Source of the DNA: Akkermansia muciniphila
GTDB lineage: Bacteria; Verrucomicrobiota; Verrucomicrobiia; Limisphaerales; F1-80-MAGS106
Length of the DNA: 64,000 nt
Direction of reading: 5' to 3'
Assembly: GCA_945865375.1 (NCBI GenBank)
Contig: CAMBEJ010000003.1
Coordinates: 9,862-73,861 of the forward strand
Each line of letters opens with the position of its first letter. Within the stretch, counting starts at the first letter, position 1. Of this stretch, positions 2,163 to 52,300 are shown one piece after another. The notes under the pieces are model-generated. The model made no database searches. It was not told where the DNA came from and saw only the letters and a list, made by a program, of their open reading frames with translations. A program made the position numbers and the translations under genes.

Positions 2163-5100
2163 TCATTGGTCGGGACCAAATGTGGCCATCGATTTGCCGC
2201 TCCCATCAAACACGCGTAACACTCCCTGGCCACCGCCGGTCACCACACGGTCCCCATCGGTCGTGATCTCCGCGCTCTGCAGGTAGTCCCCTCCGACATC
2301 GAATGAGCGCAGCTTCTCGCCTTTCTCATTGTTCACCCGGAGTTGGGCGTCCCCCGAGGCGCTTAAAGTGTGGTCAGCCAGACCCACAAAACGCACCGCC
2401 GTGACCTCTTTCGTCGCCCCATCCACGTTCCTTTTTCGATCCCCAGTGGCGACATCCCAAACTTTAACAATCCCGTCCGCGCCACCTGTCGCCAGGCCTC
2501 GGCCATCGGCTCGCCATCGGACGCTCAAAACATAGTCCGTATGCCCCTCAAACGTTTTTAAAATCTTGCCATCCGAGAGGTCTGTCACCTTCGCAAAGCG
2601 GTCGGCGGAGCACGTCGCCAGAAGTTTGCCGTCGGGTGAAAAATCCAGGCCGAAGACCACGTCGCTGTGAACATTCGTTAAATCCTTGTGCAAGGTTCCT
2701 CGAACGACATCCCAAATCTTCACCTCCCCGCCCCGGCTCGGCTGCCCTCCACCCGTGGCAAGGAATTTGCCATCGGGGCTGAATCCCAAGGCCGTAATCC
2801 GATCCGCAAAGACTCCATTGGTGCTAGTCCCGGCAATCACCCGTTCTAAATGCCAACCCAAACCGCGATGCCACACCCGAATAGAACGGTCCGCGCCCAC
2901 AACCACCCACTTTACGCCGCCCTCCAGCACGGCCGCTCCGCGTGCGCCTCCGGGAGAACTTTGATGGGCCTCAATCGGCCGGGGCGCACCCATCGCCCAA
3001 ACCTGCACGGTGCCCGCGTCATCCACGGTGGTGAGGCTTTTGCCATCGCCCGCAAAGGCCACACTTCGAACAGGCTTTGCCGCTCTTTTCATGGCGGTTT
3101 CAGCCTTCGCGATCGCTTCAGTCGCCTCTGTTACTCCAGTTTCTGACCCGCGAAGCACCTCCTCCGCAACGGCCAAGGCAAGACGAGATTTCTCGACGGA
3201 TGTCACAGCCAAGGCGCGCTCGTTTTCCGCGTTCGCAGAAGCCATCCCCGTTTTCTTCTGTTCCGCCGCAGCCGCGTCCGCCGCCTTGGTGGCCTCCGTG
3301 GACCGCTCCGTTACAGGCTTCCTTTTCTCCGCAACCAAAGCCTGCGCCTTGTCAGCATAGGCTTTATACTCCGCCGCCAACTTCGCCCCATCCACGGCGG
3401 CGGCCACCAACTTTTGTACCGTCTCCAAAGACTCAGCCACCGATTTAGACTGCTTTTCAAAGGCTTCCAACGCTGCGGCAGCCGTCGCCTTGGCACCATT
3501 CGCTTTGTCCAGCGCAACGCGCTTTTCTTGGTCGGATTTTTCAGCGGCAGCCACCGCTTCCACTGCCTTTTTGTGACGCTCCAATTGTCCGTTCAGTTCG
3601 TTGGTCGAGCTCTGCACCACACCCTTCGAGTAGGCGACGGTGTTTGTGGCCAACCTTGCCGTACGCTCCGCTGTCCATTGCGCGATCAGCAGCTCCCGAT
3701 AACCTCGGCCTTCAAACACGGGTTCTTTTTTCCCCAGTTCCCAAACCTTCAACGAGCCGTCTTCGGCCGCCGAGGCTACCCGCTTGGCATCGGGACCAAA
3801 AACCGCTGCGCTCAAGGGAGTTCCGTGTTGAAATCGCTGCACGAGTTTCCCGTTTGCCAGCTCCCAAAGCCCTACCGAACCGTCCGCACCGCCGGTCAAC
3901 AAGCGTGAACCATCCGCGGAGACTTCAACCACCGTCACCGAGTTCGTGTGCGCCACAAAATCCACATCAGGATTCCCCGCAGGGATCTTTGCCAAACTCC
4001 AGACCTGAACCGCGCCGCTTCCAAATCCGAAAACAGCACCCGCCGACTCCCCGAACAATGCCCCTGAGGAAACCTTCCCGGAAAGCTTCACGACACTGAT
4101 CAGTCTGCCGCTCGACGTCTCCCAGAGGCACGCCAAGCCATCGTCTCCGACGGTCAACAAACGATCCTCTCCCGTTGCAAAATTCAGCGCGGCTACGCGC
4201 CCTTTGTGAGCCCCCTTCCTCCAAATCGATTTCCCTGACGCAAGATCGAAAACCTGAACAGAACCCTTCGCTCCACACACTGCGGCGAACCGCCCTTTCG
4301 CGGAAACCGTTGCCATGGCAGCATCCTCTCCCACCTTCTTCATTTCACGAACCAAAGTAGGACGGAGACGACTCCAAATCCTCACCTCGCGGTAACCCGC
4401 CGAAGCAAGACGTTCCCCATCCGGGCTGAAACAGAGGGCGTTGACCCAATCACGGTGGGGATTGGCCGCTAAGGTCTGCTCTAAATCCCTCTCGGATCCC
4501 CTAAGATTCTGGGGAGGCAGCCGGGATCGCCCGGTGCCTTGGGTGGTCGAAACCAGGACTGCTCTCTCCCTGACCAGTGCGGGGTGTTTCGGCGGAACCT
4601 CGGGCAAAGCCATCGCCTTCTCGCCACTCAACTTTGCCCCGAGTGCTTGTCGGCCCAAATCGTAAACAGAAATTCGATTCCCACGTGCGCACGCGGCAAA
4701 CGTCGCATCAGGACTGACCGCAACGGCGTAAATCCCCTTCAGAGACGAGGGCAGGGGCTGCCAGGTGAGCACGATTTCGCCGCGCACTTCTCCTTTGGCT
4801 CCTTGATCGATCCACAACTGGATCAGACCCAACTGCTCAGGTGTGAAATCGACCGCCGATACCTTATTCTCCTTCGGGGGCATGCGAGGCTTGGCCTCAT
4901 GGGTTGCCAATTTGAACAACAGGCTCTCGGCCGATTTCCCGGGGACCACGGCAGGCCCGGACTCCCCCCCCTTTAGAATCGTTGCGGGCGTTTCCAAAAT
5001 CAGATCGGCTTTGGTGGTGGTTTTGTTATGGCAAGCCAGGCAGTTAGCCTTCAGCAGGGGAAGGATCTCACGCTCAAAATCAACGGTTGTTTTGCGCGCC

Positions 5101-9906: not shown

Positions 9907-9962
9907 CTCTCTCGCCGCTTCGAGCGCGGTCAGCGGGCAGCGCGCGCCAGTAACGAAGGCTC

Positions 9963-10031
9963 TGAACTCAGTAAAACGACCCTGTTTAGCCGGATTCCAG
10001 ATCTCGATGTCAACCGCTTTTACTGAGGTCT
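9963..10031. mobile_element. MITE-like element, family 2, short form (69 bp)
   Basis: Imperfect terminal inverted repeats TGAACTCAGTAAAACG / CGCTTTTACTGAGGTCT. Flanked by an exact 8-bp direct repeat GAAGGCTC (9955-9962 and 10032-10039). The same termini recur at 16547 and 23011. Confidence 0.7.
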
Positions 10032-16455: not shown

Positions 16456-16546
16456 AAAGTCTGTGTTGGTTTGCCAACGCGTTTGTCGACTGAAACGGCG
16501 CCGCTTTCAATCCAAAATCGAAAGTGCCCCTCTGGATCCCACCCAC

Positions 16547-16915
16547 TGAACTCAGTAAAACGACCCTGTTTAGCCTGATGCTCGAGCAACTCCAATTCCC
16601 TGCTCCTAATCGTAATCGTAATCGTAATCGTAATCCACCCCTCTGTTTCAAGGGCAACACCCGAGGATTACGATTACGATTAGATTCTTAAATCCTAAAT
16701 CTCGATGAATTATCTCTCAGATTTTGAACCACAGAGGCACAGAGGCACAGAGAAGAACAAACAATGAAACCAAACTTTTCCTCCTCTCTTTTCCCCCTCT
16801 GTGTCTCTGTGTCTCTGTGGTTCAAATTTCAAATCTGTTTGGCTAGGATTAGGAAAAACGGAGGAATTGGGGTTGCGCGCCCAGATCACGATTTCAACCG
16901 GTTTTCCTGAGGTCT
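16547..16915. mobile_element. MITE-like element, family 2, long compound copy containing two tandem-repeat-stem hairpins
   Basis: Left end TGAACTCAGTAAAACGACCCTG and right end GGTTTTCCTGAGGTCT match the family-2 termini. Flanking ACCCAC occurs on both sides (16541-16546; 16917-22). Contains a (TAATCG)5 hairpin at 16607-16687 and an additional nested hairpin at 16726-16823. Confidence 0.6.
16726..16823 (+). repeat. Tandem-repeat-stem hairpin (unit CACAGAGG), 27-nt arms
   Basis: 5' arm is GAACCACAGAGGCACAGAGGCACAGAG and 3' arm is CTCTGTGTCTCTGTGTCTCTGTGGTTC. 25 of 27 positions are Watson-Crick, and both exceptions are G opposite T on the + strand. The 44-nt loop starts AAGAAC and ends CTCTCTTTTCCCC. 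Confidence 0.85.
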
Positions 16916-16926
16916 GACCCACGCCG

Positions 16927-17001
16927 CGCGGGGCCAGAGGCCCCCGCGACTGGCAGACCTGGAGGTTTGCCCCACTTCGCGGACCAAAATGAGAACTGCT
17001 G
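16927..17001. repeat. Partial copy (one arm) of MITE-like family 3
   Basis: GCGGGGCCAGAGGCCCCCGCGACTGGCAGACCTGGAGGTTTGCCCCACTTCGCGGACCAAAATGAGAACTGCTG aligns with the reverse complement of 21660-21733. Confidence 0.6.
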
Positions 17002-20437: not shown

Positions 20438-20746
20438 TCAGTGTGCGGCGGCCATGATCTCAGCCGATTCGGATGCGATGTCGAGGGCATTTTCCAAACT
20501 GACCAAGCGACGCAGCAAGGATCGATAAAGGCGGTAGGCTTCCGGGCCATGTTCGGCGACCAAGAGATCGTAAAGTTGGTGTTCGGGCAACGGGCAGGGA
20601 AAAGCCGCTTGAGGGATTTTAACACCACATCGCGCGAGCCGCGGAGCGGCAATCAATACGAGCAAAGCGGCGACACTGCGAATGCCGCTCTCGAGGTCGC
20701 GAAGGCCGTCGTGGAGGATCTCTCCACCCGGTAATTCTTCATGCAT
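20438..20746 (-). CDS. Hypothetical small helical protein (partner of the upstream NTase-like gene)
   Basis: ORF track 20438..20797. The probable start is ATG 20746 (MHEELPGGEILHDGLRDLESG), which overlaps the upstream gene end by 8 nt. No recognisable motif. Confidence 0.5.
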   Translation of the reverse strand: MHEELPGGEILHDGLRDLESGIRSVAALLVLIAAPRLARCGVKIPQAAFPCPLPEHQLYDLLVAEHGPEAYRLYRSLLRRLVSLENALDIASESAEIMAAAH

Positions 20747-21242
20747 TGGCAAACCCTCCCAAAAACTCCTTAACGCGCCGGATAAATGACTCGGCATCGA
20801 TGGCGGGATAGCGATTGAAGCCCGGGATCAATGCTTCGGCGTGAGCCAATAGTTCCTGCGCCGCCACCAGTTTCAGCCGCAGCATCTCGGTCACATCCAG
20901 CAGGTCTTTGGCGTGTCCACGTTCCAGTTTCGACAAGCTCTGTGCATAAAAGTCGTAGTGGTAAACCTGGAGCTTGCCAAAGCTGCCCACAAACCGGCTT
21001 CTCTCCCGCCATGCCGTCAGCGGAGGGATGAAATCAGCCGGTGACGCCAACTCGACGTTGATTGACAGCGCTCGCTTCAAAGCGGGGATTGCTTCGAACA
21101 CGCCATCGGGCTCCGGGTCGAAGCTCAGACCCACGTCAATCGTCGTGTCCCGCCAGCCCAACAGAATCGCGCTGCTCCCGCCCGTAATAAAACAGACGCC
21201 CGGAGTCTTCGCGCTGGCGCCCAATCGGGAGAGGAAATCCAA
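20739..21242 (-). CDS. Nucleotidyltransferase-fold-like protein (resembles the DUF6036-type family; tentative)
   Basis: 167-aa ORF with a TTG start in the track. The segment CFITGGSSAILLGWRDTTIDVGLSF resembles the minimal-NTase G[GS]x9-13DxD strand-turn. The reading frame stays open upstream to 21314, but without an ATG or GTG. Confidence 0.55.
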   Translation of the reverse strand: MDFLSRLGASAKTPGVCFITGGSSAILLGWRDTTIDVGLSFDPEPDGVFEAIPALKRALSINVELASPADFIPPLTAWRERSRFVGSFGKLQVYHYDFYAQSLSKLERGHAKDLLDVTEMLRLKLVAAQELLAHAEALIPGFNRYPAIDAESFIRRVKEFLGGFANA

Positions 21243-21334
21243 CAGCTTTTCTTTCGTTAGTTTTTCGACCAGCCTTCGAGTGTAGCGTAGCGACCCTTCG
21301 TCGTCATGCCCTGTTTAATAAGTCACTCAGCAGC

Positions 21335-21558
21335 GGGTGCAACTCACGGTTTCCGGGAGGTGTCGTTCGGAGGACAATACCTACCGCAGAATGGGAAGAG
21401 TTAACCACGGATGACACGGATAGCACGGATAAAGTACCCCTCTCCGCTCCCTTTCCTCATCCGTGTTATCCGTGTCATCCGTGGTGTCACTTCAGCGTGG
21501 TTAAGCGGCGGGATACCCGCGTCAGGGGAGGCGACCTCGGATAACGTGAGTTGCACCC
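21335..21558. mobile_element. MITE-like element, family 1, copy 1 (224 bp)
   Basis: Perfect 14-bp terminal inverted repeats GGGTGCAACTCACG / CGTGAGTTGCACCC. Flanked by an exact 9-bp direct repeat CTCAGCAGC (21326-21334 and 21559-21567). Central tandem-repeat-stem hairpin at 21404-21485 (unit CACGGATA/G). Confidence 0.85.
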
Positions 21559-21659
21559 CTCAGCAGCGAGCAGTTCACCGGTTTGCATTCTGGCCGTTCG
21601 ACTACGGCACTCACAAAAGGGATCTAACACCGACAACGGTTTTCGTTTCCTCGCGCAGC

Positions 21660-21804
21660 CATCAGTTCTCATTGTGGTAGGCAAAGTGGAGTAGACCTCC
21701 AGGTCTGCCAGTCGCGGAGGCCTCTGGCCCCGCACGGAGTGGGACACTCCGCGAACCGGCAGGTCGGAGACCCTGCCCCACCGTGTTCAAAATGAGAACC
21801 GCTG
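21660..21804. mobile_element. MITE-like element, family 3, full copy (145 bp)
   Basis: Termini CATCAGTTCTCATT / AATGAGAACCGCTG match at 12 of 14 positions as inverted repeats. Flanked by an exact 9-bp direct repeat TCGCGCAGC (21651-21659 and 21805-21813). Internal palindrome AGACCTCCAGGTCT. Confidence 0.8.
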
Positions 21805-21823
21805 TCGCGCAGCGGGAGTCGAT

Positions 21824-22834
21824 TTATTTCCTAGCGCACATCATGGCAGTGCATGCCTTGATCACACTCTGGGAATCGATCGTTTCCATGAGAAATTCTC
21901 CGGGACCGTTCCCGCCGTACGGGTCGCCGACTGGCAGAACGATTTGGTGAGGCACCTTCCACGGCGCCCACTGGCTGACAACAGAAGGACCGAACAACGC
22001 CACAATAGGGCACTGGCAGGCGGCGGCAAGATGCATCGCCGCCGTGTCCACGCCGACGAACAATTTGGCCCGATGCAACACCCAGGCCAGGTGCGCCCAT
22101 GTGAGGGTGCCTTGGGTGGAAATGGCCCTCGACCCCAACTCTGCTGTGAGTCGTGCCGCGCTTTCAACCTCCTCGGTGTCGGGCCCAGCGCTGATCACGA
22201 TTCGCGGTACATGATTCAAAAGTGATCGGCCAACCTCAACCCACCGGTCGTGCAGCCACCGCTTCCTCTTCCACCGTGTTCCCGGGTGAAGCACCACAAA
22301 GTCCGCATCGCCTTCGAGTTTGTCCCATTTCATGGTTCTCGAACGATCAAAAACCATCGGAGGCGGCGCAGCACCGATCGGAAGAAAGTCGCGCACCGTA
22401 AAGAAATCTTTTTCAACGCGGTGCCCCTGAGCCCACTCGTGATGCGACCGGCCGTTGAACCAGAGGCGCCACCAGGGGTTGAGTGAGTAAAACGATGTGT
22501 TGGCGCACCGTCTGCAGGCCGCGCTCAGGCCAGCAACCCATCGACCCCGATCCCCATCGGTGAGTTCGAAGGCGTAATCAAACCTCTGTCGTCGGAGTTC
22601 CAAACCTAGCTTGACCTCGGACCACCACTCCACCCGGGAACGGTTCCCCGCTTCAGGCGCCGCCGCCGTCAGAACCCGGTCGATGACGGAACAACCCTCA
22701 AGAACACCCTCGGTTCCTCTCCGAACGACCACCCAGATCAAGGCATTCGGGTCGAATTCACGAACCGCCTGCAAGGTCGGCGTCAACAGCAACGCATCCC
22801 CTATGTGTTTCAGTTTGACAAATAAATACCGCAT
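21824..22834 (-). CDS. Glycosyltransferase family 9 (LPS heptosyltransferase-like)
   Basis: ORF track 21824..22981. The likely start is ATG 22834 (MRYLFVKLKHIGDALLLTPTLQAVRE, the typical GT9 N-terminus). C-terminal motif is FVGVDTAAMHLAAA. Confidence 0.85.
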   Translation of the reverse strand: MRYLFVKLKHIGDALLLTPTLQAVREFDPNALIWVVVRRGTEGVLEGCSVIDRVLTAAAPEAGNRSRVEWWSEVKLGLELRRQRFDYAFELTDGDRGRWVAGLSAACRRCANTSFYSLNPWWRLWFNGRSHHEWAQGHRVEKDFFTVRDFLPIGAAPPPMVFDRSRTMKWDKLEGDADFVVLHPGTRWKRKRWLHDRWVEVGRSLLNHVPRIVISAGPDTEEVESAARLTAELGSRAISTQGTLTWAHLAWVLHRAKLFVGVDTAAMHLAAACQCPIVALFGPSVVSQWAPWKVPHQIVLPVGDPYGGNGPGEFLMETIDSQSVIKACTAMMCARK

Positions 22835-23010
22835 CGCGCGATCTATCAGGGCAGAGCTCCTGCAGGGTGGGAAGCGGAAAATGCTCTGAACGCAGCAGTT
22901 CCGCCCGCTGGCGCGCGGGCGGGGACGACGCAGCGCACCGTCCCTACCTGATGTCTTTCGGCCGAGGGGGGTGCGATCCATTTTCCATGCGGTCAGGAGT
23001 TCTGAGCCTC

Positions 23011-23229
23011 TGAACTCAGTAAAACGACCCTGCTCTCGAGCAACTCCAATTCCCTGCTCCTGCTCCTGCTCCTGCTCGTAATCGTAATCGTAATCGTAAT
23101 CGTAATCCTCCCCTCTGTTTCAAGCGCAACACCCGAGGATTAGGATGAGGATTACAATTACGATTACGACAAATGGAGGAATTGAAGTGGCTCGTCCGGT
23201 TGCGATTCCAACCGCTTTTGCTGAGTTCT
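23011..23229. mobile_element. MITE-like element, family 2, long copy with hexamer-repeat hairpin
   Basis: Termini are TGAACTCAGTAAAACGACCCTG and CGCTTTTGCTGAGTTCT. Internal (CTGCTC)4 at 23054-23077 and (GTAATC)5 at 23078-23107 pair with GAGGATTAGGATGAGGATTACAATTACGATTACGAC. The loop CCCCTCTGTTTCAAGCGCAACACCCGAGGA is nearly identical to that at 16638-16667. Flanks show no clean duplication. Confidence 0.65.
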
Positions 23230-23282
23230 GAGCTTGGTGCAGGAGCCCATCTCGAAGGGCCGAGGGATGGACAGCCGACCAC

Positions 23283-23514
23283 GGGTGCAACTCACGGTTT
23301 CCGGGAGGTGTCGTTCGGAGGACAATACCTACCGCAGAATGGGAAGAGTAACCACGGATAACACGGATAGCACGGATAGCACGGATAAAGTACCCCTCTC
23401 AGCTCCCTTTCCTCATCCGTGTTATCCGTGTCATCCGTGGTGTCACTTCAGCGTGGTTAAGCGGCGGGATACCCGCGTCAGGGGAGGCGACCTCGGATAA
23501 CGTGAGTTGCACCC
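23283..23514. mobile_element. MITE-like element, family 1, copy 2 (232 bp)
   Basis: Same 14-bp TIRs as copy 1. Flanked by an exact 9-bp direct repeat GCCGACCAC (23274-23282 and 23515-23523). The central hairpin 5' arm carries one extra 9-nt unit relative to copy 1. Confidence 0.85.
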
Positions 23515-23593
23515 GCCGACCACGCCTCATGCTTTTTGAACTTATCAAACCATCGGAGTTTTGAAAGGATTGCGAGAGAATGATGCGATCCCT

Positions 23594-24667
23594 ATGAAAC
23601 TGGCCTTGATTCGTCGAAAGTTCGACGCGGGCGGTGGCGCGGAACTTTACACGCAACGCCTCCTCACCGCGTTGGTGGAGGCAGGTCACGACGTGCATCT
23701 GTTCGCCGAATCCTGGGCTGAAGCCCCTGCCCAGGTTCGATTCCATCCGGTCGGCGTCCGAGCTCCCCGAGCAAGTCGCGCTCGGATGTTTGCCGAAACT
23801 GTCCAGGCTCAATTGCGTTCAATCCATTTTGACTGCGTCTTCAGCCTCGAGCGGACACTCCGACAAGACGTGTATCGGGCTGGGGACGGGGTTCATCGTG
23901 TGTGGTTGGAACGTCGGCGCGAGTTTGCTCCCTGGTGGAAACGATGGCTCATTGGGCGAGGCCGTTTCCACCAGAGCATGCTGGCACTGGAGCGGGAAAC
24001 CTTCTCGCCTTCAAACACACGCCATATCATTGTCAATTCGGAGATGGTTCGACATGAGATCCAGAGGTGCTTCGACTTTCCTGACGAGCGGATCCATCTG
24101 GTTCGAAATGGCGTGTGTGTTGAACGATTTCAAAATCTGGACCGCCGCGCCGCACGATCTCGATTCGGATTTTCCGAGTCCGACTTCGTCCTGTTGTTCG
24201 CCGGGTCTGGTTGGGATCGGAAAGGTCTCCGGTATGCGATCGAGGTTGCCCGGCGTCTCCAAGGAGCTCAAGTCAAACTCCTGGTCGCAGGCAAGGGAAA
24301 AGCCCCCTCTAATTCGCCATCGAATGTGTTGTTCACAGGCCCCCTGAGGGATGTGGAGACTGCTTATGCGGCTGGGGATCTCCTCCTGTGCCTCCCCACT
24401 TACGAACCGTCGGCGAATGTCGTGTGCGAAGCGCTCGCCTCGGGGTTGCCTGTCGTCACCTGTATTCAAAATGGCGCCGCGGAATGGATACAGAGAGGTG
24501 TGACTGGGTCCATCGTTGACAATCCCGCCGATGTTTCCTCCGTGCTGGCCGCTGTCGAACCTTGGCTCCTGCGTCCCCGAAAACCCTTCCCGATCGAACT
24601 GGACGACCTCCGCTTAGAACGCAATGTGAGAGAGACGCTCGCAGTCATCTCACTCTGTCGGCAGTGA
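23594..24667 (+). CDS. Glycosyltransferase family 4 (GT-B, WaaG-like)
   Basis: ORF track 23561..24667. The likely start is ATG 23594 (MKLALIRRKFDAGGGAELYTQRL). C-terminal GT-B motif is EPSANVVCEALASGLPVV. Confidence 0.85.
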   Translation: MKLALIRRKFDAGGGAELYTQRLLTALVEAGHDVHLFAESWAEAPAQVRFHPVGVRAPRASRARMFAETVQAQLRSIHFDCVFSLERTLRQDVYRAGDGVHRVWLERRREFAPWWKRWLIGRGRFHQSMLALERETFSPSNTRHIIVNSEMVRHEIQRCFDFPDERIHLVRNGVCVERFQNLDRRAARSRFGFSESDFVLLFAGSGWDRKGLRYAIEVARRLQGAQVKLLVAGKGKAPSNSPSNVLFTGPLRDVETAYAAGDLLLCLPTYEPSANVVCEALASGLPVVTCIQNGAAEWIQRGVTGSIVDNPADVSSVLAAVEPWLLRPRKPFPIELDDLRLERNVRETLAVISLCRQ

Positions 24668-40335: not shown

Positions 40336-43300
40336 TCAGCGTACTCGAAAGAATTTCTGTTTCGATTCCGACGTGCTTTTCGTCACGATCTCCCCTGTGC
40401 TCGAAATGTCCACCCACGGGCCGGAAGGGCTGTCCGCCATCTGCAACGTCGTTCCGCCCTCCCATTCCAGCATCAGTTTTGCTTGATCCAAATTGGCGAC
40501 AACCTGGGCGCAACTCACGATGATATTGAAGGAGCACTGGATCGGTGGGGCGGAGCCTGGCACTGTGCATGTGACCACGGTCAAGCCCACTGGGAACAAA
40601 CTTTTTCGGGGAGGGCTGCCGTCCAACACCACCTGCTGGCAACCGACGGTGGCGAAGGCTTGATAATCGACAACGGCTCCGTTGCTGTCACCGCACTTCA
40701 CGAGCAAATCGCTCGGGCAATGCAACTCTGGCAAAGCACTTGGGTTTGGGCTGGGATCGATGACCGTGAATGTTGTGGTGCAATATCCAATGTTACCGCG
40801 AGCATCAGAGACGCTGCACGTGATCTCATGCACCCCCGGTCCAACGAGCGTTCCCGCAGGAGGATCCTGCGTTGGCACGCTACCCACCGGAACCAAAACA
40901 GAGGACCGAGGACAGTTGTCGGTGTAGATGACCTTTGAAGCAAAATCTGGAACGAGAGCTTGGCAAGGTTTCACTCCGCTGGTGTTAGCCCCACCCCCGA
41001 GCGTCACGGTCACGGGTGGCGGGCAACTCAAAACGGGAGGTGTGATGTCACCAAAGAAAAGGCAGGCGGGCCAACCGTAGGACTCGTATTCGTTCCATCC
41101 GTAGACGGTAACGCCGATGGGCAAAGAGGACGTCATCGAATGCACGCCCACAGTGACAGTGGCGGTTGCCGCAGAAAAACCGGAAGCACCCACCGCGCTA
41201 AAGCCAACCACCACCAACCCATCCAGCTTCACGGTACCCACCGCTGAGGTCGGTGCGATGATATTGACATGATGCGTCAGAAATCCGGACGATGGCACGC
41301 AGAACCTTTGTTGTGGGCTAAAAAGCAAACGCCCAGGCACCAGCGTCATGAAAGGGTCGCTTTTCGGCGTATTATCAAAGTCGCTGCTGTTCGCGTATTG
41401 AGCCACCAGCACCGGACGCGTGGCGGTGATCTGCGTGGTGGCTACCAACGCCAAGGTCGGTCTGAGAGTTTCATAGAACTGGCCCGCCGCCAAGGTTGTC
41501 ACGGCGGCACCGTTGACTGAGACCACCGTGTTGTCGTAGGCCGCTAAAACTCGAAATGTGTCCCCCTTCGACCGCGTAGAGAGCCGACGCGCGTAAAATT
41601 CCGTTGCCCATTGACTGACCGGTGTCATCTGTTCGACCAGATAGTCGCAGAAAGATGAGGATGCCGATCGCACATTCGCGCAAGCGTGCCCGCCGAAAAC
41701 AGCAATGGGCTTGTCCGATAACACCCGAGTTCCAGTCAGATCTGATCCGGCCCCTGGGGTGGTCCGCAACTGGTAAACATCCCCCGCGCCCAAGTTGACC
41801 TTGAAGGGCTCGCCGGCGTTGTGGGTTCCCGTGACGACGCTCGGGATCACAGTGATGGTCGTGTCGGCTTCGGGCGCGACCACGGCAAATTCAGAGCCGT
41901 TGAGTTCAGGAATTCCCAACTGTTCATCACGGTAAGCGAGCACATAATATTCGGTGCCCAGAACTTCCGTTGGCAACCCAAGGTAACCGTCGCTCGTGAA
42001 TTGCGCCTTGCTCAACCCATGGATTCCAACGGGTTCAGACGCGGTCACATGGATGCCCTTTTGCTGCACTTTGTCGTTGGCATCTCCAAGATCCGCCCCT
42101 TTCGGGAGTTCAACATTCACGCACAAGCTCGCCGGGATCACGACCGTCTTCGAGTAGCCCAAGCCGGCAATGCCAACGGTCACCGTGGTGCCCGCATTTC
42201 CTAGCACCCAAAGACTTGGCCTGACTGGATTGGAGGGATCGGGCGTGTAGTTCCCCGGGAATGTCAACCAGAAGTCCGTGCCCGAACAGCTCAGATCGCA
42301 CCGTGCCGGTTTCTGGATCTGCACGGCGTAATCTTCGACTTCTCCCGCTCCACCGTCGCCGTCGAAGCTGAGTCGGCCCTCATGGCTGAGGCGGAACCGC
42401 GCAAAGATGGTGCCGTACTGCGAGGACACGGGCACCGAAAAACTCAACAAATTCACGCCAGCCACCAATGTTTGAGCAGTAAAAATCCGTTCTCCTGAAT
42501 CAACCCAGTTGGAATTGCGATTGAAATCCACCCAGGCATCCAGACGACCTCCTGCTGTTGTGGTCACCTCGACTTGCGCCAATGTCCCAGGAACCATCGG
42601 AGAGAGAAACCGTACGCCATCCTCATCACTCGCCCCACCGCTGACGTCGTCACCTGTTGCCGACGCATTGGGCAGGCCATTGGGCTCTCCATCTTCGGTC
42701 TTACCCAGATGAAACCCAGTCTGAATCTGATGACGCGCCCCATTGCGAGCCAAGGTTGTCGGAAACCCAGTCGTTTCAGTTTCAGGCGCATCTCCGAAAT
42801 CCAACTGCCCGGACTCGATGTTGACGCTGTAATCTTCGACCTCGCCGTCAGAGGCTAATCCCGTGAAGGAAAGCTTGGATTGATGACTGAGTCTAAATCG
42901 AGCAAAGGTGCGTCCGGGCTTTGCCGATGCGGGCACAAAAACATTCAAAACATGCGGGCCTGGACCCAGGCCGAGATCCGCAAACACCTGATCCTCGGCA
43001 TCGGCCCAACTTCCGTTTGAGTTGAAATCGAACCAAGCGCTCAGCCGTCCCTCGCCAACGATCCTCACCGTGAGGGTCGTCTTCAGACCCGGCAGGAACG
43101 AACCGTTAAAAGCAACACCGTCCTCGTCGTCCACTGCGCCAACTGGAGAGCCATCATCACCTGTCGCATCGGAGTTGGGTTTCCCGTCTATCTCCGCATC
43201 CACTTTCTGGCCCAGGCTGAAACCCGGTAGAATCCCATGGCGCGCCCCATTGTTCTTCAACGTGGTCGGATAAGGCCCGTCTGGAGCATCGCCAAAATCG

Positions 43301-43395: not shown

Positions 43396-46300
43396 GGAAT
43401 AGAACTGGGGTCGACCAAGTTGACCACCGCGATGCCGGAGAACGTCACCGGCTTATGGCCCGGTGTTGTCAATGTGGTTGCAGTTTGAGCTGTGACACCT
43501 CCCAAAGTGTCGTAATTCAGCACATCTTCCAATCCTCCTCCCCCTTCAATCTGGAGGGGCATCACGGCGGATGGAGTTATAATAAACGTGTCGCTACCAG
43601 AACTCCCAACAATCTTTTCGACTGTGTCATCCGCAAAGCTCACTGAATTCACGCCAATATTCGAGACGACTTTCGACCCGACCCCGGGTTTCAACGTGGC
43701 TGTGATTGAGTCAGAAGTGAAAAGGATCTCGTCGACATCCGAGATGATCGCGGGTGTTTCGACCACCAAATCAACGCCCCAACTGGGACCGAAAACATAG
43801 ACGTCGCCGCCGGCTCCGCCGCCCAGAGTGTCGTTGCCACGTCCGCCATTCAGCCGGTCGTTTCGCGAACCCCCTTTGAGGTTGTCATCCCCGGGCCCGC
43901 CATCGAGAACCACGCTACCCAAGCCAAAGTTCGTGGCATCCAAGTGGTTGTTGCCATCACCGCCAGTCAACTCTGCTGCCCGAATCCCAATGAGCGTGTC
44001 CGTCTCCGCTCCAATCTGCAACGAGCCGTTCAGCAGAACAAAATTAGCATCGCGGATTTCGAACACTTTATCGAGACCTGCGGGGCCCCCATCCAGCACA
44101 TCATTGCCCAAGCCACCCACCAGGATGTCGTCCCCGCTCCCACCACGAAGCGTGTCAGCGCCGTCCCCGCCTGCCAGAAGCACGGGGCCCAGCGTGAATC
44201 CCGCCGCAGATATTGAGTTGGGACCCGCACCACCAACGAGCGTGGCGCGTTCGATGCCCGTGATCGAGTCTGTCTCCAAACCGATCTGCAATGTGCCATT
44301 AGTAAGGACCATGTTGGCATCCCGAACAGCCACTACTCTGTCTTCAGCAGAGGCACCTCCGCGCAGAATGTCATTGCCCAACCCGCCGTCCAGCGTCACC
44401 GCGCCGAGCGTGAACCCAGACGCATCAAGGGTGTTCGAGGCGGCACCTCCCGTCAGAATCGCTCCTTCCATGGAGCTGAGGCTGTCGGATTCACTCGGCC
44501 CAATCTTCAATGTGGCGTTCGAGAGTTTAAAATCACTGTCGCGCGTCTCGGTGACGAAATCCACCCCGTCTCCGCCGATGAGCGTGTCGTTCCCAGGCCC
44601 GCCCGTCAGCGAATTGTTGAGGGCGTTGCCGATGATCTTGTCTGCTTTGGCACCGCCGATAACCGACTCGATGCTTTCAGGATTTCTAATTTCCAAAGCT
44701 AGATGAATGGTCGCATCTGGCAAAGTGGTCTCATCGATGACGACGATTTGCCGCGTCACCTGGGCAAGATCGACGCGTATCGAAAGCCCGGTTGTCTGAG
44801 AGAAATCGAGGGTGTCAACGCCACCACCAATCCCAGAGGTTTCGAGGATGATGTCGCTGCCTAGAATCAGGTCGCCATCGAACACATAACGGTCGTTACC
44901 CGGTCCCCCTGCCAGGTGATTCTCAAGGGAGTTGCCTTGAATCACATCGTCACCCGATCCCCCGATGACATTCTCGATGCGATCATTCGCAAGAAGATTG
45001 AGGAACAACCCCGGCTTGACCTGTTGCGGAAGAGCGTTGCCAAGGTTGATGCTGATGCCAACCCCAGTGGTCTGCGAAAAGTCGAGGGTGTCAATCCCCC
45101 CGTTCACGGATTCCACAATCGTCGCTGTCCCGGTTTCGGCATCCCCATCAAAACGGTAGGTGTCATTGCCCGCTTGACCGGCAAGGTTATCGTTCCCACC
45201 TTTGCCCTCCAGGATATCATCCCCAGCTTTGCCCGCTAAGACATCAGGGCCGCTGCCGCCCACAATCAAGTTGTCCAACGAATTACCCGTGAGGACACTG
45301 CCAAACTGGCCCCCCAGGACGTTTTCGAGGGATTCTCCAGACGAAAGGTTCAGAGCGAGGTTGACGTTGACGACTTGCGCGGGCGGGGTGTCATGCGAAA
45401 GGTCCACATTCGTTGGCAGGCTGGTTGTCGTCGAAAGATCCAAGGTGTCTACCCCGCCCTCCACGTCTTCGGCCTCGACAACGGTATCGGTCCCCAAGGG
45501 GAAGTCTGCATCAAAAACATAGGTATCGTTCCCGCGTCGGCCTGCGAGACCATCGTTCCCGCCCAAACCGCTTAGCCGGTTCTTGAGGCTGTTCCCGATC
45601 AAAAAGTCGTTCCCGCTGCCACCGATCAGGCTCTCGACGCCGTGGGCCACTATAAGGCGTAGAGACAAGTTTGGATTCACGACCTGTTTGATGCCGCGGC
45701 CCAGGTTCACCGTGACCGATGAGCTCGTCAGGACGAAATCAAGCGTGTCATTTCCTCCGGTGCCTACCTCCTCCCAAATATGATCAAACCCGAGCGGCCC
45801 GTCAGCGTCGAAGAGGTAAAGATCATCCCCATCGCCACCCTCCATCCAATCGTCACCAGCCAACCCCAGCAAGAAATCGTTACCAGCACCACCCAGGATT
45901 CGGTTGTTCAAACTGTTCCCGCTGAGCACATCGTTCAGCGAGCCGCCAATCACATTCTCAATGGAAATACCGCTGAAAAGATCCAACGTGTGCCGAGTCA
46001 AGGGTCCAGGAGCTGGGGTTCGAGCCGCGATCTGGGCGGTGTCCAGCAAAAGGCTGACCGAGACAATGGCGGTGGACGTTCCTGCATAATCGAGCGTGTC
46101 GATACCCCCACCAACGAGTTCATTTAGAGTATCGGTTCCCAGATCATTGTCAGCGTCGAAGCTGTAGGTGTCGTCGCCGCCTGAGCCTGTCAGCGAGTCA
46201 TTTCCCGCGCCTCCGATGAGAACGTCATCCCCGCTCCCACCCAGGAGGACATCGTCGGCACCGCGGCCATCGAGCGTGGCGGAGCCCGTGAATGCGGTCG

Positions 46301-49300
46301 CGTTGAGAGTGTTGTTGCTGACTCCTCCGATGAGTGTGGCAGCTTCGATTTCGATGATTGAATCGGTTTCACCACCGCCAAACACGAGCGAACTGTCAGT
46401 GAGCACCATGTTCGCATTACGTTCTTCCAACACCCGATCCACGAACGGTTTGCCGAATTGGTCGATGCCAACGCCGCCGTTCAGCACGTCATTTCCCTTG
46501 GCCCCAGTCAGGGTGTCGCTGCCTCTCAGACCCTCAATCTGGTTGACCAAATCGTTGCCTAGGAGCCGATCGTTGTTCTGGCCGCCGATAATGTTTTCGA
46601 AGACATCCCTAGCGGAGAGCCTCAGTTTGAGATTGATGTTGATGGTCTGCGCCAGTGCTGACCCGAGGTCCAAGGTGATTCCTAAACTTGTGGTTCCAGC
46701 GAAATCCAGGGTGTCAACACCTCCCGTGGTGGACTCTATGAGCAAGTCGCCCCCAACGTTGGAGAGTGGCGAGTCGGTGTCGAAGTAGTAGACATCGGCG
46801 CCATCCCGGCCTTGAAGGCTGTCATCACCGGCTCCACCAATCAGTTCATCAGGTCCATTGGTGCCTATTAAAGTATCGTTGCCACCGCGTCCATCCAACC
46901 GGGCTGTCCCCGTCGTGAAAGCAGCCGCATCCAGGAGGTTATCGCCTTCCCCACCCGTCAGTTCAACCCGTTCAATGGTTCCAAAATACGTATCCACTTC
47001 GCTCAACCCCACCTTCAGCTGCGAGTTGGTGAGTGTGAAATTGGCATCCCGTTCTTCAAAGATCGTATCGAGGCCATTCCCGGTGAGGCTGTCATTGCCC
47101 GAGCCACCCGATAGGAAGTTCTGACCAGAACCTCCGATCAGCGTATCGTTGCCGCCGCGCCCTTCCAACCGAACCTCGCCGCCAAAAGTCTGAGCATCCA
47201 GGGTGTTATCGCTGTCATCACCCACGAGGCTGACGTTCTCAAAGTCCGCGTAAGTGTCGGTTTCGCCGGCGGAGATCAAGGTGAGGGTAGTGTCGGTCAA
47301 GTTGAACCCGCCACCTCGTTCCTCGACAAGCGTGTCATTGCTGGTGTCCCCGGGCGGGCCGCCATCGACCTGGTCATTTCCTTCACCGCCGCGAATTCGG
47401 TTGTTCCGCTTGTTGCCGATCAGGACGTCGTTGCCAGTTCCTCCATAGAGATTTTCAATCCCTAGCGCGGAGGAGAGCGTGAGACTCAGATTCCCATTCA
47501 CCACCTGTGAGATCGTCTGGCCCAGGTCGAGCTTGAGTGCCAGCGTGGTGGTTTTAGAGAAGTCAACCCTGTCCTGATCTCGGAACGTCCCGAGGCTTAA
47601 GGATTCAACCACCCTATCGTGTCCCAAAATCGTGTCGGCATCGAAATAGTAGGTATCAGAACCAGGCCCTCCCCTCAAATCGTCATTGCCGCCCTTGCCC
47701 TCGAACTGATCATTCCCAAAACCCCCACTCAAAAGGTTGTCCAGACTGTTTCCACTCAGGACGTCATTTTGGTCTCCACCGATCGCATTCTCGATCACAT
47801 TGCCAGCAGGAAGGGTCAAAGAAAGTGTGGTTGTCACCTGCTGCAACAAAGTACTGCCGAGGTCAAGACTGATGGCGCGGCTGCTGGTTTGAGACAAATC
47901 GAGGGTGTCATTCCCGCCAAACGGTGAAGCGACCTCAATAATCAAATCGTTGCCGAGGTTCTTGTCGCCATCAAACAGGTAGCTATCATTCTCGCCACCG
48001 CCATTGAGAGTGTCATCGCCAACGCCGCCCTCGATGCGATCATTGCCGCCTTCTCCATACACCGTATCCGCGCCGGTGCCCGCCACCAAAACGTCATTGC
48101 CAACCCCGCCCAACAGCTGGGCAAGCCCGGCATTGCTGAAGTATCCGAAATCACCCAGGATGATGTCATCGCCATCCTGCCCGTAGATCGTATCGTCGTC
48201 GGGGCAAGGATTGTCAAAAATAAGCACGATCGCCTCAGGCAGGTTGCCATAAACCGGCCCTCCCGTTGGGTTTTTGAGGAATAATTTGAAATACTCGGGT
48301 GGCGTTTCGGTCAGAGCATCTTTCTTGATGGGTATGATGAAGGACAGTTCGTTCTCATCCACTCCGAAGCCGATTGTGCGCCTGCCAGGAACGCCTGCGG
48401 CACCGTTCTCCCAGATCCCGGTGTAATCAAGTCCGGATGTGGCCGTCACTCCCTGCGTCCAGTAAGTGCCCACAGGCTGCGTGCTGCCTGGCGTGCGAAG
48501 GATCGTGATCGTGGCGAAACCGTCTGTTTCCCGCACGCTGTAGACCAAGTGACTGAACTGGAGGCTCCACGGTCCTGCGGTGCCAGGCGCGACCGGGTGC
48601 AGTCCGGCATCGACGTTGCCCAGAGTCTGCCCGGCGGCGACCACGACTGGGTCCGTCAAGCCAGTAATGCCATTCGCATCGCTATCGCGGTCGTCGGTAC
48701 CCACATTGGCCGTCGCCAAGGTATAGCCGGCTGGCACTAGGAATTGGACCTGATAACTGCACGCAGCCAATTTTTCAAATTTATAGATTCCGACTGCGTC
48801 GGTATAGGTGATCCCCACCAAAACCCATTCCGAATCAAAGAGGTTAACCTGGACGTCTTTCACGCCAACCTCCGCGACAGCGCGTCGGTTGTCAGCGGGA
48901 TTGTTGTCAAGCCAGACACGCCCCGTAATCGTCGCGGGGGCGGGGATGGAAGCGGGGTCGACGTAGATTCGATTTCCATCCGGAAAGTCCGCCTGTTTCA
49001 AGGAGGCTGAGTAGGGTTTACCGGTGCAGCCGTATGCCGGCCCAAGCCAGTGCCCGCCAACCAGCCAGTCGTTGCCCGGGCCTCCATCCAATACATCGCT
49101 CCCTGGTCCGCCATAAACCACGTCATTGAAATAGGCCAACCCATTACCAGTCGAGGTATCCGGCTTTCCCTTTTTCGGCGGGGTCACAAACCCGAAATCG
49201 CGCAGTTTGAGGACGGTGGTGCTCACTTCGGCTATGAGCGGGTTGTTCCCCGTGGTCAGGGCGCTGTCAACCGGGGTTGTGCTCTCATCGACGGTGACCA

Positions 49301-52300
49301 CGAGCGTGCCGAGATAAACATTGGCCTTGTAGGAGCCGTCGGCCTCAGTCTTGACGGTGTACTCATTCTGGAAATCTTTGAGCTTCACGGTCACATTGGG
49401 CAAACCCCAGTCTGTGTCGGCGTCAAAGAACCCATCGTTATCAACGTCGTAGAACACCCGGCCGCTGACCAACGAAAAGTCGTTGTCGTAGATATAAGTC
49501 GTGTCCTGAAAGTAAACGATCTCGGCGTTGACCGGGTTGCTGATCATGCCAATCACGCTCTCAAGTCCCTCCGAGAGGCCGTCGTCAATAATGGGCACTT
49601 TCACCTGGAGAATCTTGGTGCCCGAGAACACCCCAAAGTTCAGCGTGCCCCCGGACGGAAGGAAGTCGAGAGGGGCGATCGCAGTCCCGTTGAGTGCGAT
49701 CCAATCTATTTTGACGGGGACCTCGGTTTTACCCTCTGCGATCACATCAAAAAGCAGGAACGCAGGATCAAAATCCCCCGGCGGCGGCACGGGATCTTCT
49801 TCAGAGTTCCCGTCGGGAAGATCGGGCCCCATGTTATTGACCGCGAAGATCTGCAGTGTCGGCAGCGGATCATCCTCCTGGATTGTGATTATGGTGGTCG
49901 GATTCAGCCCCCGCACAGGACCGCCTGTGGGGTTGAGCAGATTGAGAATGATCGTTTCATCCCCCTCATAGGCATCGTTGTCCACGATCGGGACCGTGAA
50001 CACTTTCGCGGTTTCTCCCACCTCGAAACGCACGAAGCCTCGAGGTCCGCTGGTTCCCTTTTCCCAGATACCCGTGTAATCCGAGCCTGCGGTGGCGGTT
50101 CCTCCAACACTCCAATACACCGCCACTGGCTCAGAGCTTCCTTCAGCCCTCACCAAGGTAATATCCAGGGAACCTTCCGATTCTTTGACCTCGTAATGCT
50201 TTCTCGCGAACTCGACATACCACGGGCCTGGATCTCCAGACTCATCGTTTTTAATCGTGATGACGGCGTGGTTCAAATCAGCGGCGATGACGTTCAGTCG
50301 ACCGTTGGTGGCACTCAATAAGTTAACAAAGAAGTACTCATCCGGCTCAAGGTGAGTGTCGCCTACCACCTCAAACTCGATGGCACTGTCCGTCGAGCCT
50401 TCCTTTATCGTCACGGTCTCGAATTTGTAGACGTAATCAGGCAACTGCCCGGTTGGCGCGGCATTCGATGCCGTTCCGGGCGACGTATTCCAATTGATGA
50501 CCACATCGCGACCACTGACCGCGCTCAAATGCACGTTCAGGGTCACGGGGGTGTTTCCAGCATGCCCTTCTAAGACGGTTTTGGTGATCGTTGGGAAAAA
50601 CTCAACAAATGGACGCGGATCATCATCCAGTATGCGGGCGGTCGCCACGGGCCGCACGACTTTGGCCGCATCCGAAGGCGTGCTCGGATCCAGCTGAATT
50701 CGAAGTTGGAACTGCTCATCATACTCGCTCAACGCATCTCCGAAAATCGGGATCACGACCGTCTTCTCAACTTCCCCGGAAGCGAAAGTCATCACTCCCG
50801 GCACGGTCTCCACAACAGCCGAATAGTCGAGGATTGGCCTGGCAGCGTCCACAACCCTGCGACCGCTCGAATCGACGACCTGCTGGGTCAAGTACTGGAT
50901 CTTGATGGGCTGCCAGCTCGGGTGGCTCAAGCGCACCACAAATGTCATCCCGGTGGCTTCGGGCACCGGGTTGATGAGGCTGAGCTGAACCCCATCCACG
51001 GCGCTGACTCCCGGGGCATCATCATCGTCGACAATGGTGCCAACGCCTTCCTTGTGCGCGGGGTCAAGCTCCGCATTCCACGGATCGTAAAGTTTCACTG
51101 TGAACGTCTGATCGGGTTCATCCATGAAATCACCGAGGATGGGAACTTCGATGCTTTTCTGGGTTTCTCCCGGTCTGAAAACCAACGTGTAGTCAACCGT
51201 GGAGTAGTCTGCGATATTCGTCGCCGTGCCCTTCACGGATTCATACGCCACGGTGATGATCTGGTCTGACACGCTCGTCAGCGTGACTGTAAACACCAGG
51301 AGTTGCTGACCTGTGTCCGCTTCGGTAATCGACGGGTTGTCGATCACGAGCAGAGGCTGGGTGCCTTTGACTCCCGCATCCCGCGAATAATCAATCTGTG
51401 CATCATTCAAGTGGAATGTTTCGGTCAAGCCAGTCCCCGTATTAACGTCGCTGTCGGCTTCGTCATCGGAACCTGTGTCTTTGTTGACGAAAGCCAAACC
51501 CGTCGGAAGTGTATAGCGGAGTTTGTAATCCCCGCCTTTGAGGCCAGTGAACTTAAACAAGCCACCCGTGTCAGTGGTGGTTTTTCCAACCACTGCATCC
51601 GTCGAATCCAACAGTTCGACTTTGATTCCTGGCACTCCCATTTCATGGCTGTCACGAACGTTATTTCTAATCCCATGAGCATCGAGGGAATCGAACCACA
51701 CCATGTTCCCGATATTGGCACCTGGGAAAGTCGTGAGGGCAGCGCTGTGGGCGTCGTCGGCGTAGATGATGTCATCCTGATCACCCCCATCGATGAAGTC
51801 CTGGGTATCGGTATCGGTATCTCCGGGTGTGGCCTTGCCGCTCACCAACAACGTTCCACCATACAGCGCATCTCGACCGCCCGCGCCAAAAAGCACATCC
51901 GTACCGGGGCCGCCAGCCAGCAAATCGTTGCCATTGCCATCGACGCCGGTGGCTTGAAGAAAGCTGACGATGGTTCCGTTGTCACCCAGAATGATGTCGT
52001 TACCTAACCCCCCGTCGATGTTGTCGTCGCCATCTCCGCCGACCAACCTGTCAGCGCCCAATCCACCGGTGATGGTGTCGTCCCCGGCACCGCCACTGAC
52101 GATGTCATCGCCTTCATCCCCGTCGATGGTATCGGCACCCTCGTTGCCCTCAATGACGTCATCTCCCAGCGAGCCGTAGAGTTTGTCATTTCCCGTCCCA
52201 CCCCACAAATGATCATTGCCAGCCCCCCCAAACAAGGTGTCGCTCCCGTCATCCCCATAAAGATTGTCATCGCCCTCCAGGCCCGTGAGCTCATCGCTCC

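Follow-up and report, generated by a model that had tools for sequence, protein, structure and literature searches.

Two repeats of 224 and 232 bp in a Verrucomicrobiota bacterium are genuine MITEs. They are best explained as non-autonomous elements that derive from insertion sequences (ISs) of the ISKra4 family and that are mobilised in trans and targeted to promoters; for this explanation as a whole, a probability of about 0.88 is estimated. The repeats were found in a 64-kb stretch of DNA, here referred to as the window. In a preliminary description of this DNA, a non-autonomous MITE with footprints of transposition had been proposed, and this is now supported by ends that recur elsewhere, by target-site duplications (TSDs), and by a transposase-encoding partner element. 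The partner family, the promoter-anchored choice of targets, and the tandem stacking of copies in other samples were not included in that description.

Structure of the two MITE copies

The positions of both copies and of the features around them are given in Table 1. On re-reading, the coordinates and the perfect 14-bp terminal inverted repeats (TIRs) agreed base for base with what had been described. Copy 1 starts with GGGTGCAACTCACG and ends with CGTGAGTTGCACCC, and both copies open with the former sequence and close with its reverse complement. The two ends match at 14/14 positions, and at 19/21 positions when the full 21 nt are compared (GGGTGCAACTCACGGTTTCCG vs GGGTGCAACTCACGTTATCCG). 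Throughout the 64-kb window, the exact 14-mer terminus is present at these four ends only; a match with one mismatch at 40506 was rejected as chance, as it falls within a region of coding repeats and is not paired with a second end. The interiors had been called near-identical, and an alignment of the copies bears this out with 222 identities, one substitution, and 10 gap columns (~99% identity outside the indels), nine of the gap columns being due to an extra 9-nt unit in copy 2.

Each copy is flanked by an exact 9-bp duplication, and the duplicated sequences differ between the two sites (CTCAGCAGC and GCCGACCAC), as was seen again when the flanks were read directly. The chance of finding two independent perfect 9-bp flanking repeats is ~(4^-9)^2, i.e., ~1e-11. 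A composite transposon, with the left end of copy 1 and the right end of copy 2 carrying the GT9 gene between them, was considered as well. The outer flanks of the pair match at only 3/9 positions, and the copies therefore represent two independent insertions rather than a composite transposon. A REP/REPIN mobilised by RAYT was also rejected, as such elements are recognised by palindromes of 20-40 nt, the lack of a TSD, and a RAYT partner, whereas the present repeats are 224-232 bp long, have 9-bp TSDs, and share their ends with an IS partner of a different type. The copies have no coding capacity, since the ORFs that overlap them all extend into non-homologous flanks, and both are below the size limit of ~600 bp that is used for bacterial MITEs. 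The window had been said to contain no transposase; a tblastn search of the window with the cognate transposase and its companion ORF gave nothing (best E 0.5).

Table 1. Positions of the MITE copies and neighbouring features in the window, and of the DruA-like ORFs in partner ISs
Feature	Position	Strand	Details
Left TSD, copy 1	21326-21334		CTCAGCAGC, identical to 21559-21567
MITE copy 1	21335-21558	+	224 bp; inverted repeats at 21335-21355 and 21538-21558
Central hairpin, copy 1	21404-21485	+	arms 21404-21430 and 21459-21485, 96% complementary; three 9-nt CACGGATNN / NNATCCGTG units each
Right TSD, copy 1	21559-21567		CTCAGCAGC
Left TSD, copy 2	23274-23282		GCCGACCAC
MITE copy 2	23283-23514	+	232 bp; inverted repeats at 23283-23303 and 23494-23514
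Hairpin arms, copy 2	23343-23377 and 23415-23449		four units left, three right
Right TSD, copy 2	23515-23523		GCCGACCAC; same 9-mer separates the tandem copies of other assemblies
167-aa ORF downstream of copy 1	20739-21242	-	TTG start; weak DUF6036 nucleotidyltransferase-like match
Promoter-like target by copy 1	21279-21307	-	aTGACg 21307-21302, TAcAcT 21284-21279, 17-nt spacer
GT9 heptosyltransferase gene, between the copies	21824-22834	-	336 aa, ATG at 22834
-35-like boxes facing GT4	23536-23547	+	TTGAAC 21 nt and TTATCA 27 nt outside the right inverted repeat of copy 2
GT4 glycosyltransferase gene downstream of copy 2	23594-24667	+	357 aa, ATG at 23594
DruA/DUF4338 ORFs of partner ISs	L047:1602-2504; L054:826-1728; L108:5082-6056		

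Distribution of the family outside the window

One genome per species was scanned with the 21-nt terminus GGGTGCAACTCACGNTNTCCG, and 28 stretches were matched, most of them in six Verrucomicrobiota MAGs; a scan of metagenomes with the same terminus added 59 further loci (87 loci in all). Matches of the 21-mer in contigs of Cupriavidus, Ralstonia, Polyangiaceae, Hyphomicrobium, and Opitutaceae were excluded as chance: they lack a second end and appear to be part of coding or conserved chromosomal DNA. Beyond the window, the termini recur together with consistent 9-bp TSDs at many sites; with the window copies included and MITEs and ISs taken together, perfect 9-bp duplications were found at 11 independent insertions with this terminus. 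In the related MAG CAMAWP01, the element of the window (family 1) is present at ~93% identity, with copies on four contigs and partial ones at contig ends. A complete family-1 copy (L007:2303-2529) has TCAATCGTG as its TSD on both sides. Other elements have only the ends in common with family 1, e.g., a 222-bp MITE type (L014:56-277) with the TSD GGTTGCGTG, and elements of 132-133 bp with perfect 9-bp TSDs (L042, L052, and L081). Imperfect TSDs were seen at L005:5808-6019 (7/9) and at L050 (8/9).

In MAG binchicken_co66_256, thirteen contigs end 53-54 nt into an element with these termini, a pattern that marks it as a repeat of high copy number at which assemblies of short reads break off. No transposase was found beside the ends in two loci of the high-copy MAG, L025 and L016. 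Of these, L025 (3786-4021) has the appearance of a small element between genes, one of its ends being degenerate; the L016 pair at 3452-3535 was set aside as doubtful, its second end having three mismatches and its flanks not matching. In addition, two contigs of the related MAG have family-1 arms that run into the same unrelated sequence (GTAGAGTAGGCGAAGCGGACGG...) in place of the hairpin (L003:4764-4844 and L028:4387-4514). Both contigs end within this sequence, which may represent either another element, nested in the MITE and with long inverted ends, or a replacement of the core.

The autonomous partner

A longer element with the same TIRs was sought and found. In ~12 metagenome loci, inverted matches to the terminus lie 2.5-2.6 kb apart and enclose two ORFs each. 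One of these encodes a transposase of ~490 aa that is recognised by the NCBIfam model NF033572 (ISKra4 family transposase), with 225.3 bits for the protein of L047 against a cut-off of 205; the transposase of L054 is borderline at 203.6 bits against the same cut-off. Weaker matches were obtained to the related ISLre2, ISH6, and IS256 models. The other ORF, of 300 aa and located upstream of the transposase gene, matches Pfam DruA/DUF4338 (6.9e-32), a domain that is a signature of Druantia defence systems. By tblastn, the transposase and DruA-like genes were found between the ends in roughly twenty loci.

Full IS copies with perfect 9-bp TSDs are present in L054 and in L106 (GCTATCAAT), L107 (GACATTGGA), and L108 (TATTCCCGG); the latter three were obtained via transposase homologues on long contigs and served as held-out full ISs. 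The inverted repeats of the partner ISs are ~21-26 bp long and start with GGGTGCA. The first 21 nt of the MITE are identical to the IS ends and the similarity extends over 29-39 nt, while the interiors are unrelated. At the level of sequence, each window MITE is shown to keep only about 21-30 nt of each end of a 2.5-2.6-kb ISKra4-family IS. Among the 87 loci, no IS type other than the ISKra4 type was found with these ends.

Many short metagenome contigs consist of little more than a full IS, with flanks that do not match; probably, different copies of a multicopy repeat were joined into chimeras during assembly. In neither the window nor any contig assigned to the source species was an autonomous copy found, and the partner ISs come from metagenomes, so that mobilisation in trans is a reading of the shared ends only. 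As a separate observation, the full IS of L107 (4900-7620) lies inside a tandem TCCAATGTC/CAAGAG-like tract that resembles the tandem-unit hairpins of the MITEs.

The central hairpin and other repeats of the window

Each copy is predicted to fold into a terminal stem, formed by the inverted repeats, and a long central hairpin. Relative to shuffled sequences, z is -8.3 for copy 1 (as DNA) and -7.7 for copy 2 (as RNA). The hairpin had been described as composed of 9-nt units with one more in copy 2, and this holds, the left arm having three units in one copy and four in the other. Across same-species contigs and the window, the number of left-arm CACGGATNN (CACGGAT) units is 3, 4, 5, or 9 (e.g., window 23343-23377, L097:2272-2553, and L088) and the right arm always has three; the hairpin is therefore not kept symmetric. 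It looks like a slippage-prone tandem repeat without demonstrated function. A resemblance of the 9-nt unit TTATCCGTG to the DnaA box, TTATCCACA, amounts to 6/9 positions, and this idea was dropped.

A very stable predicted fold (z ~ -8) in copies that are intergenic and close to gene ends, with similar tandem-unit hairpins in other repeat families of the window and its relatives, might also suggest a duplicated gene for a structured ncRNA or a regulatory/terminator hairpin module. Such a repeat would not be mobile, and its flanking 9-mers would stem from local duplication. This is hardly credible, given that different perfect 9-bp duplications flank the element at 11 sites and that its ends are shared with an element encoding a transposase. 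Moreover, no Rfam 15 covariance model matched at gathering score anywhere in the window, a terminator scan of the region gave no terminator from the MITE hairpin, which is not followed by a T-run, and the variation of one arm only (3 to 9 units) argues against a constrained structure. A mobile element remains the preferred reading.

Further repeats are present in the window. A second MITE-like family (9962-9995, 16546-16711, and 23010-23183) has ends like CTGAACTCAGTAAAACG and a hairpin of CGTAAT hexamer units, and one of its copies shares the intergenic region of MITE copy 2, at a distance of ~100 bp. In the related MAG (L003:4160-4340), a frame of the family-2 type encloses CACGGAT 9-nt units in its hairpin rather than CGTAAT, which suggests that the families exchange such tandem-unit hairpins as modules or have acquired them convergently. 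A third, short repeat of 87 nt (21660-21746 and 16915-17001, 86% identical) is found between MITE copy 1 and the GT9 terminator, and includes the inverted repeat 21660-21676 / 21788-21804. Lastly, 43850-52260 is a long, internally repetitive coding region with repeat families of 51-61 nt across ~8 kb, and is probably the gene of a giant, repeat-rich surface protein.

Target choice relative to promoters

For the analysis of target choice, 85 non-redundant element-genome junctions, MITE and IS pooled, were oriented outward from the inverted repeat. A TTG starts at offset 27 in 22/85 junctions, against ~2.2 expected per position (binomial P ~3e-16); a secondary peak is present at offset 21 (13/85), and a small bump at 14-15. 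A simple -35/spacer/-10 score was then applied to 79 flanks with a threshold of at least 8/12. This threshold was reached by 11/79 flanks at offset 27 and by 18/79 at offsets 26-28, and by 0-1 at the remaining offsets, except for four at offset 21 and two at offset 14. In the subset with TTG at 27, an A/T-rich block ending in T is found at the expected -10 position. Of the three full ISs that had been held out, two have their TTG at exactly 27 as well, and either end of the IS may face the promoter. It is thereby shown statistically that the family inserts with its end 27 bp (the 9-bp duplication plus 18 bp) upstream of the -35-like TTG of a sigma-70-type promoter, in either orientation. Insertion at this offset leaves the core promoter intact. 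In the flanks of L042, L078, L033, and L044, TTG occurs at 15, 21, and 27 together (TTGNNN three times, every 6 nt), so the recognised feature may exceed a single -35 box.

That both copies in the window are located just upstream of genes is explained by this promoter-anchored choice of targets. For copy 1, a -35-like aTGACg begins at a distance of exactly 27 nt from the left inverted repeat, on its outer side, and is directed towards the gene of a 167-aa protein, the promoter-like boxes being 36 nt upstream of its start codon. The preliminary description had called this gene NTase-like and stated that it lacks a canonical start; the remark is not meaningful because the ORF begins with TTG, which is a legitimate bacterial start codon. 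The 167-aa product was called identically by gene callers on other assemblies, and its match to Pfam DUF6036 (E 0.0035, 17.6 bits) is under the cut-off of 23.6. Copy 2 is located in the divergent promoter region of GT9 and GT4. Its best -35-like box is at offset 21, not 27, and has no convincing -10; the TTGAAC/TTATCA block before GT4 is conserved in a relative with 78% identity. A consensus promoter scan of 21150-23700 gave no site of at least 9/12. As neither site is a strong consensus promoter, promoter anchoring has statistical backing at the level of the family and is no more than suggested for the copies of the window.

The offset also bears on the identity of the transposase. The MITEs might be moved by another transposase family that makes 8-9-bp duplications (e.g., IS256, IS1, or IS4/Tn5-like), in which case the identity of their ends with those of an ISKra4-type IS would be coincidental or convergent. 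The lack of a cognate transposase in the window would fit this, as would the weak similarity of the partner enzyme to the ISLre2, ISH6, and IS256 models, since related families share properties. It is nevertheless very unlikely: the MITE and the IS have their first 21 nt in common, are similar over 29-39 nt, and make duplications of the same length, the 27-bp offset is found in pooled MITE and IS junctions as well as in held-out ISs, and no different IS type with these ends is present among the 87 loci. An ISKra4-type enzyme is thus retained as the partner.

Filled sites and tandem stacks

A comparison of empty and filled sites in related strains had been envisaged in the preliminary description. 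In the relative represented by L092/L094 (78% nucleotide identity, GT9 79% identical), GT4 and GT9 have the same divergent arrangement. The gap between them is 77 nt vs 647 nt in the window (~570 nt less), and conservation resumes within ~12 nt of the right TSD. This supports the view that copy 2, and the repeat of the second family beside it, were inserted there, but the relative is too diverged to reveal the exact empty site, i.e., a single unduplicated GCCGACCAC.

Contigs of the same species were identified by an identical GT9 or GT4 protein. In these, the copy 2 site is always filled, with one to at least three copies, as compared with one in the window. Two to three copies, not identical to each other, are stacked head to tail in L088:1-700 and L096:1-460 (corresponding to window 23274-23523), in the order MITE-GCCGACCAC-MITE-GCCGACCAC-MITE, and the stacked copies differ among themselves by SNPs and by the number of hairpin units. 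The contigs with arrays were assembled from short reads by MEGAHIT, and the arrays run up to their ends. In three further contigs (L097:1-2271, L099:2100-2690, and L103:1677-2697), the MITE at the GT9 or GT4 side is joined to unrelated flanks that encode DNA polymerase III delta, a 944-aa protein, and a XerC-like integrase. These joins indicate repeat-induced chimeras or rearrangements, and also at least three more genomic copies of family 1 in the source species, in addition to the two of the window.

The 9-bp-spacer junctions of L088 and L096 fit circles or arrays alike. The divergence between stacked copies fits repeated promoter-anchored insertion, and so does the constant 9-bp spacer, since the duplicate next to the promoter stays equally far from the -35 box. 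The alternatives are rated about even with this: the 9-bp duplications could just as well have undergone unequal crossing-over or replication slippage, and the MITE-9bp-MITE junctions could also stem from excised circles among the reads or be artefacts of the assembly graph. Unequal exchange predicts copies in the same orientation, which is what all stacks show, and circles with flank-derived spacers of 6-10 bp are known in related families (PMC3942029). The short-read contigs stop inside the array, and the three contigs of the same species with foreign flanks are clearly chimeric across MITE copies. However, the stacked copies differ (SNPs, unit number) as much as dispersed ones do, which is unexpected if the array arose by recent duplication or represents a circle formed by the resident copy, and the junction 141-mers, which must be in the reads, were recovered in two different samples.

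Discussion

In the mechanism proposed here, an ISKra4-type transposase, supplied in trans from elsewhere in the genome or the population, would bind the GGGTGCAACTCACGNTNTCCG ends. The element would be inserted via a 9-bp staggered cut, and 9-bp duplications would follow from it. Transposition may pass through an excised circle, in which the ends are joined by a few flanking bases, as has been reported for IS256, ISLre2, and TnGBS. On the promoter side, insertion would regenerate the same promoter-anchored 9-bp target, so that repeated hits could stack copies head to tail with the same spacer.

Prokaryotic Mutator-like transposases were defined by Guerillot et al. 2014, with ISAzba1, ISMich2, and ISKra4 forming p-MULT 4 (PMC3942029). 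The published inverted repeats are 18-39 bp long with a conserved terminal C, the direct repeats are 8-9 bp, and related families have circular intermediates with ends separated by 6-10 bp of flank (PMC3942029). For members of the ISKra4 group, direct repeats of 9 bp are listed together with ends such as GGGTGCATTTAA (PMC3942029 Table S1), and members with nearly symmetric inverted repeats insert upstream of sigma-A promoters at 13-17 bp, with either side of the element (PMC3942029). Verrucomicrobiota are not among the phyla listed in the 2014 survey, nor are non-autonomous derivatives mentioned in it (PMC3942029). No account of MITEs derived from ISKra4 elements, or of comparable MITEs in Verrucomicrobiota, was found in a literature search.

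The present elements resemble the ISKra4 group in that the partner passes NF033572, the direct repeats are 9 bp, the inverted repeats of ~21-26 bp start with GGGTGCA like those of ISAcce1, and nearly symmetric repeats are inserted in either orientation upstream of sigma-70-type promoters. These values agree with the published features of the family, which are inverted repeats of 18-39 bp that start with GGG (a terminal C on the other strand) and 9-bp repeats; perfect 9-bp TSDs are present in L054, L106, L107, and L108. Differences from the group are the host phylum, the DruA/DUF4338 (GNAT-like) ORF upstream of the transposase gene, the existence of MITE derivatives, and the distance from the end to the -35 box, for which the main peak is at 27 bp here vs 13-17 bp in the published elements, although the published measure may be defined differently. 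The discrepancy may be a real difference of about one helical turn, or be partly a matter of definition.

Bacterial MITEs include Correia/NEMIS of Neisseria, RUP of Streptococcus, and the IS-derived MITEs in ISfinder. The window copies are like these in being small, non-coding, multicopy, intergenic, and strongly folding, with TIRs that match an IS and a TSD of fixed length. Unlike them, they have a target that is defined by a fixed distance from a promoter rather than by a short sequence such as TA, an interior that is unrelated to the IS and contains a hairpin with a variable number of 9-nt units, and head-to-tail stacks with a common 9-bp spacer. TnGBS and ISLre2 (p-MULT 3) have related Mutator-like transposases, as reflected in the weak ISLre2 model match of the partner, and likewise make 9-bp duplications at a fixed distance upstream of -35 boxes; they are also known to use circular intermediates (PMC3942029). 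However, they form a separate clade, insert in a fixed orientation at 15-17 bp from the -35 box, and include some ICEs. Eukaryotic non-autonomous MULEs and Pack-MULEs are also derivatives of the Mutator superfamily with 9-bp duplications and a preference for the 5' ends of genes (PMC3942029), but they are eukaryotic, much larger, and often contain gene fragments, and no direct relationship is evident beyond the transposase superfamily.

What is added to these systems is an ISKra4-family MITE in Verrucomicrobiota. The 27-bp spacing, the stacks, and the GNAT-like DruA homologue of the partner are worth following. DUF4338 has been described as GNAT-like (PMC10853773), and a search of the literature on DUF4338/DruA with transposase or insertion sequences found no paper linking them. 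It is a tentative and rather doubtful proposition that the family combines a new promoter geometry (27 bp) with self-renewing stacks upstream of one promoter and a possible role of DruA/DUF4338 in targeting or its control.

With these results, an anonymous repeat has become a defined mobile element with a named partner family, and its position upstream of genes is explained. In practical terms, these MITEs break or mis-join Verrucomicrobiota metagenome assemblies, several contigs being chimeras joined through MITE copies. Provided that the fixed 27-bp spacing and the stacks are real, the family would offer a compact natural system for promoter recognition by a DDE transposase, and each insertion would mark the position of a promoter in a phylum whose promoters are poorly mapped.
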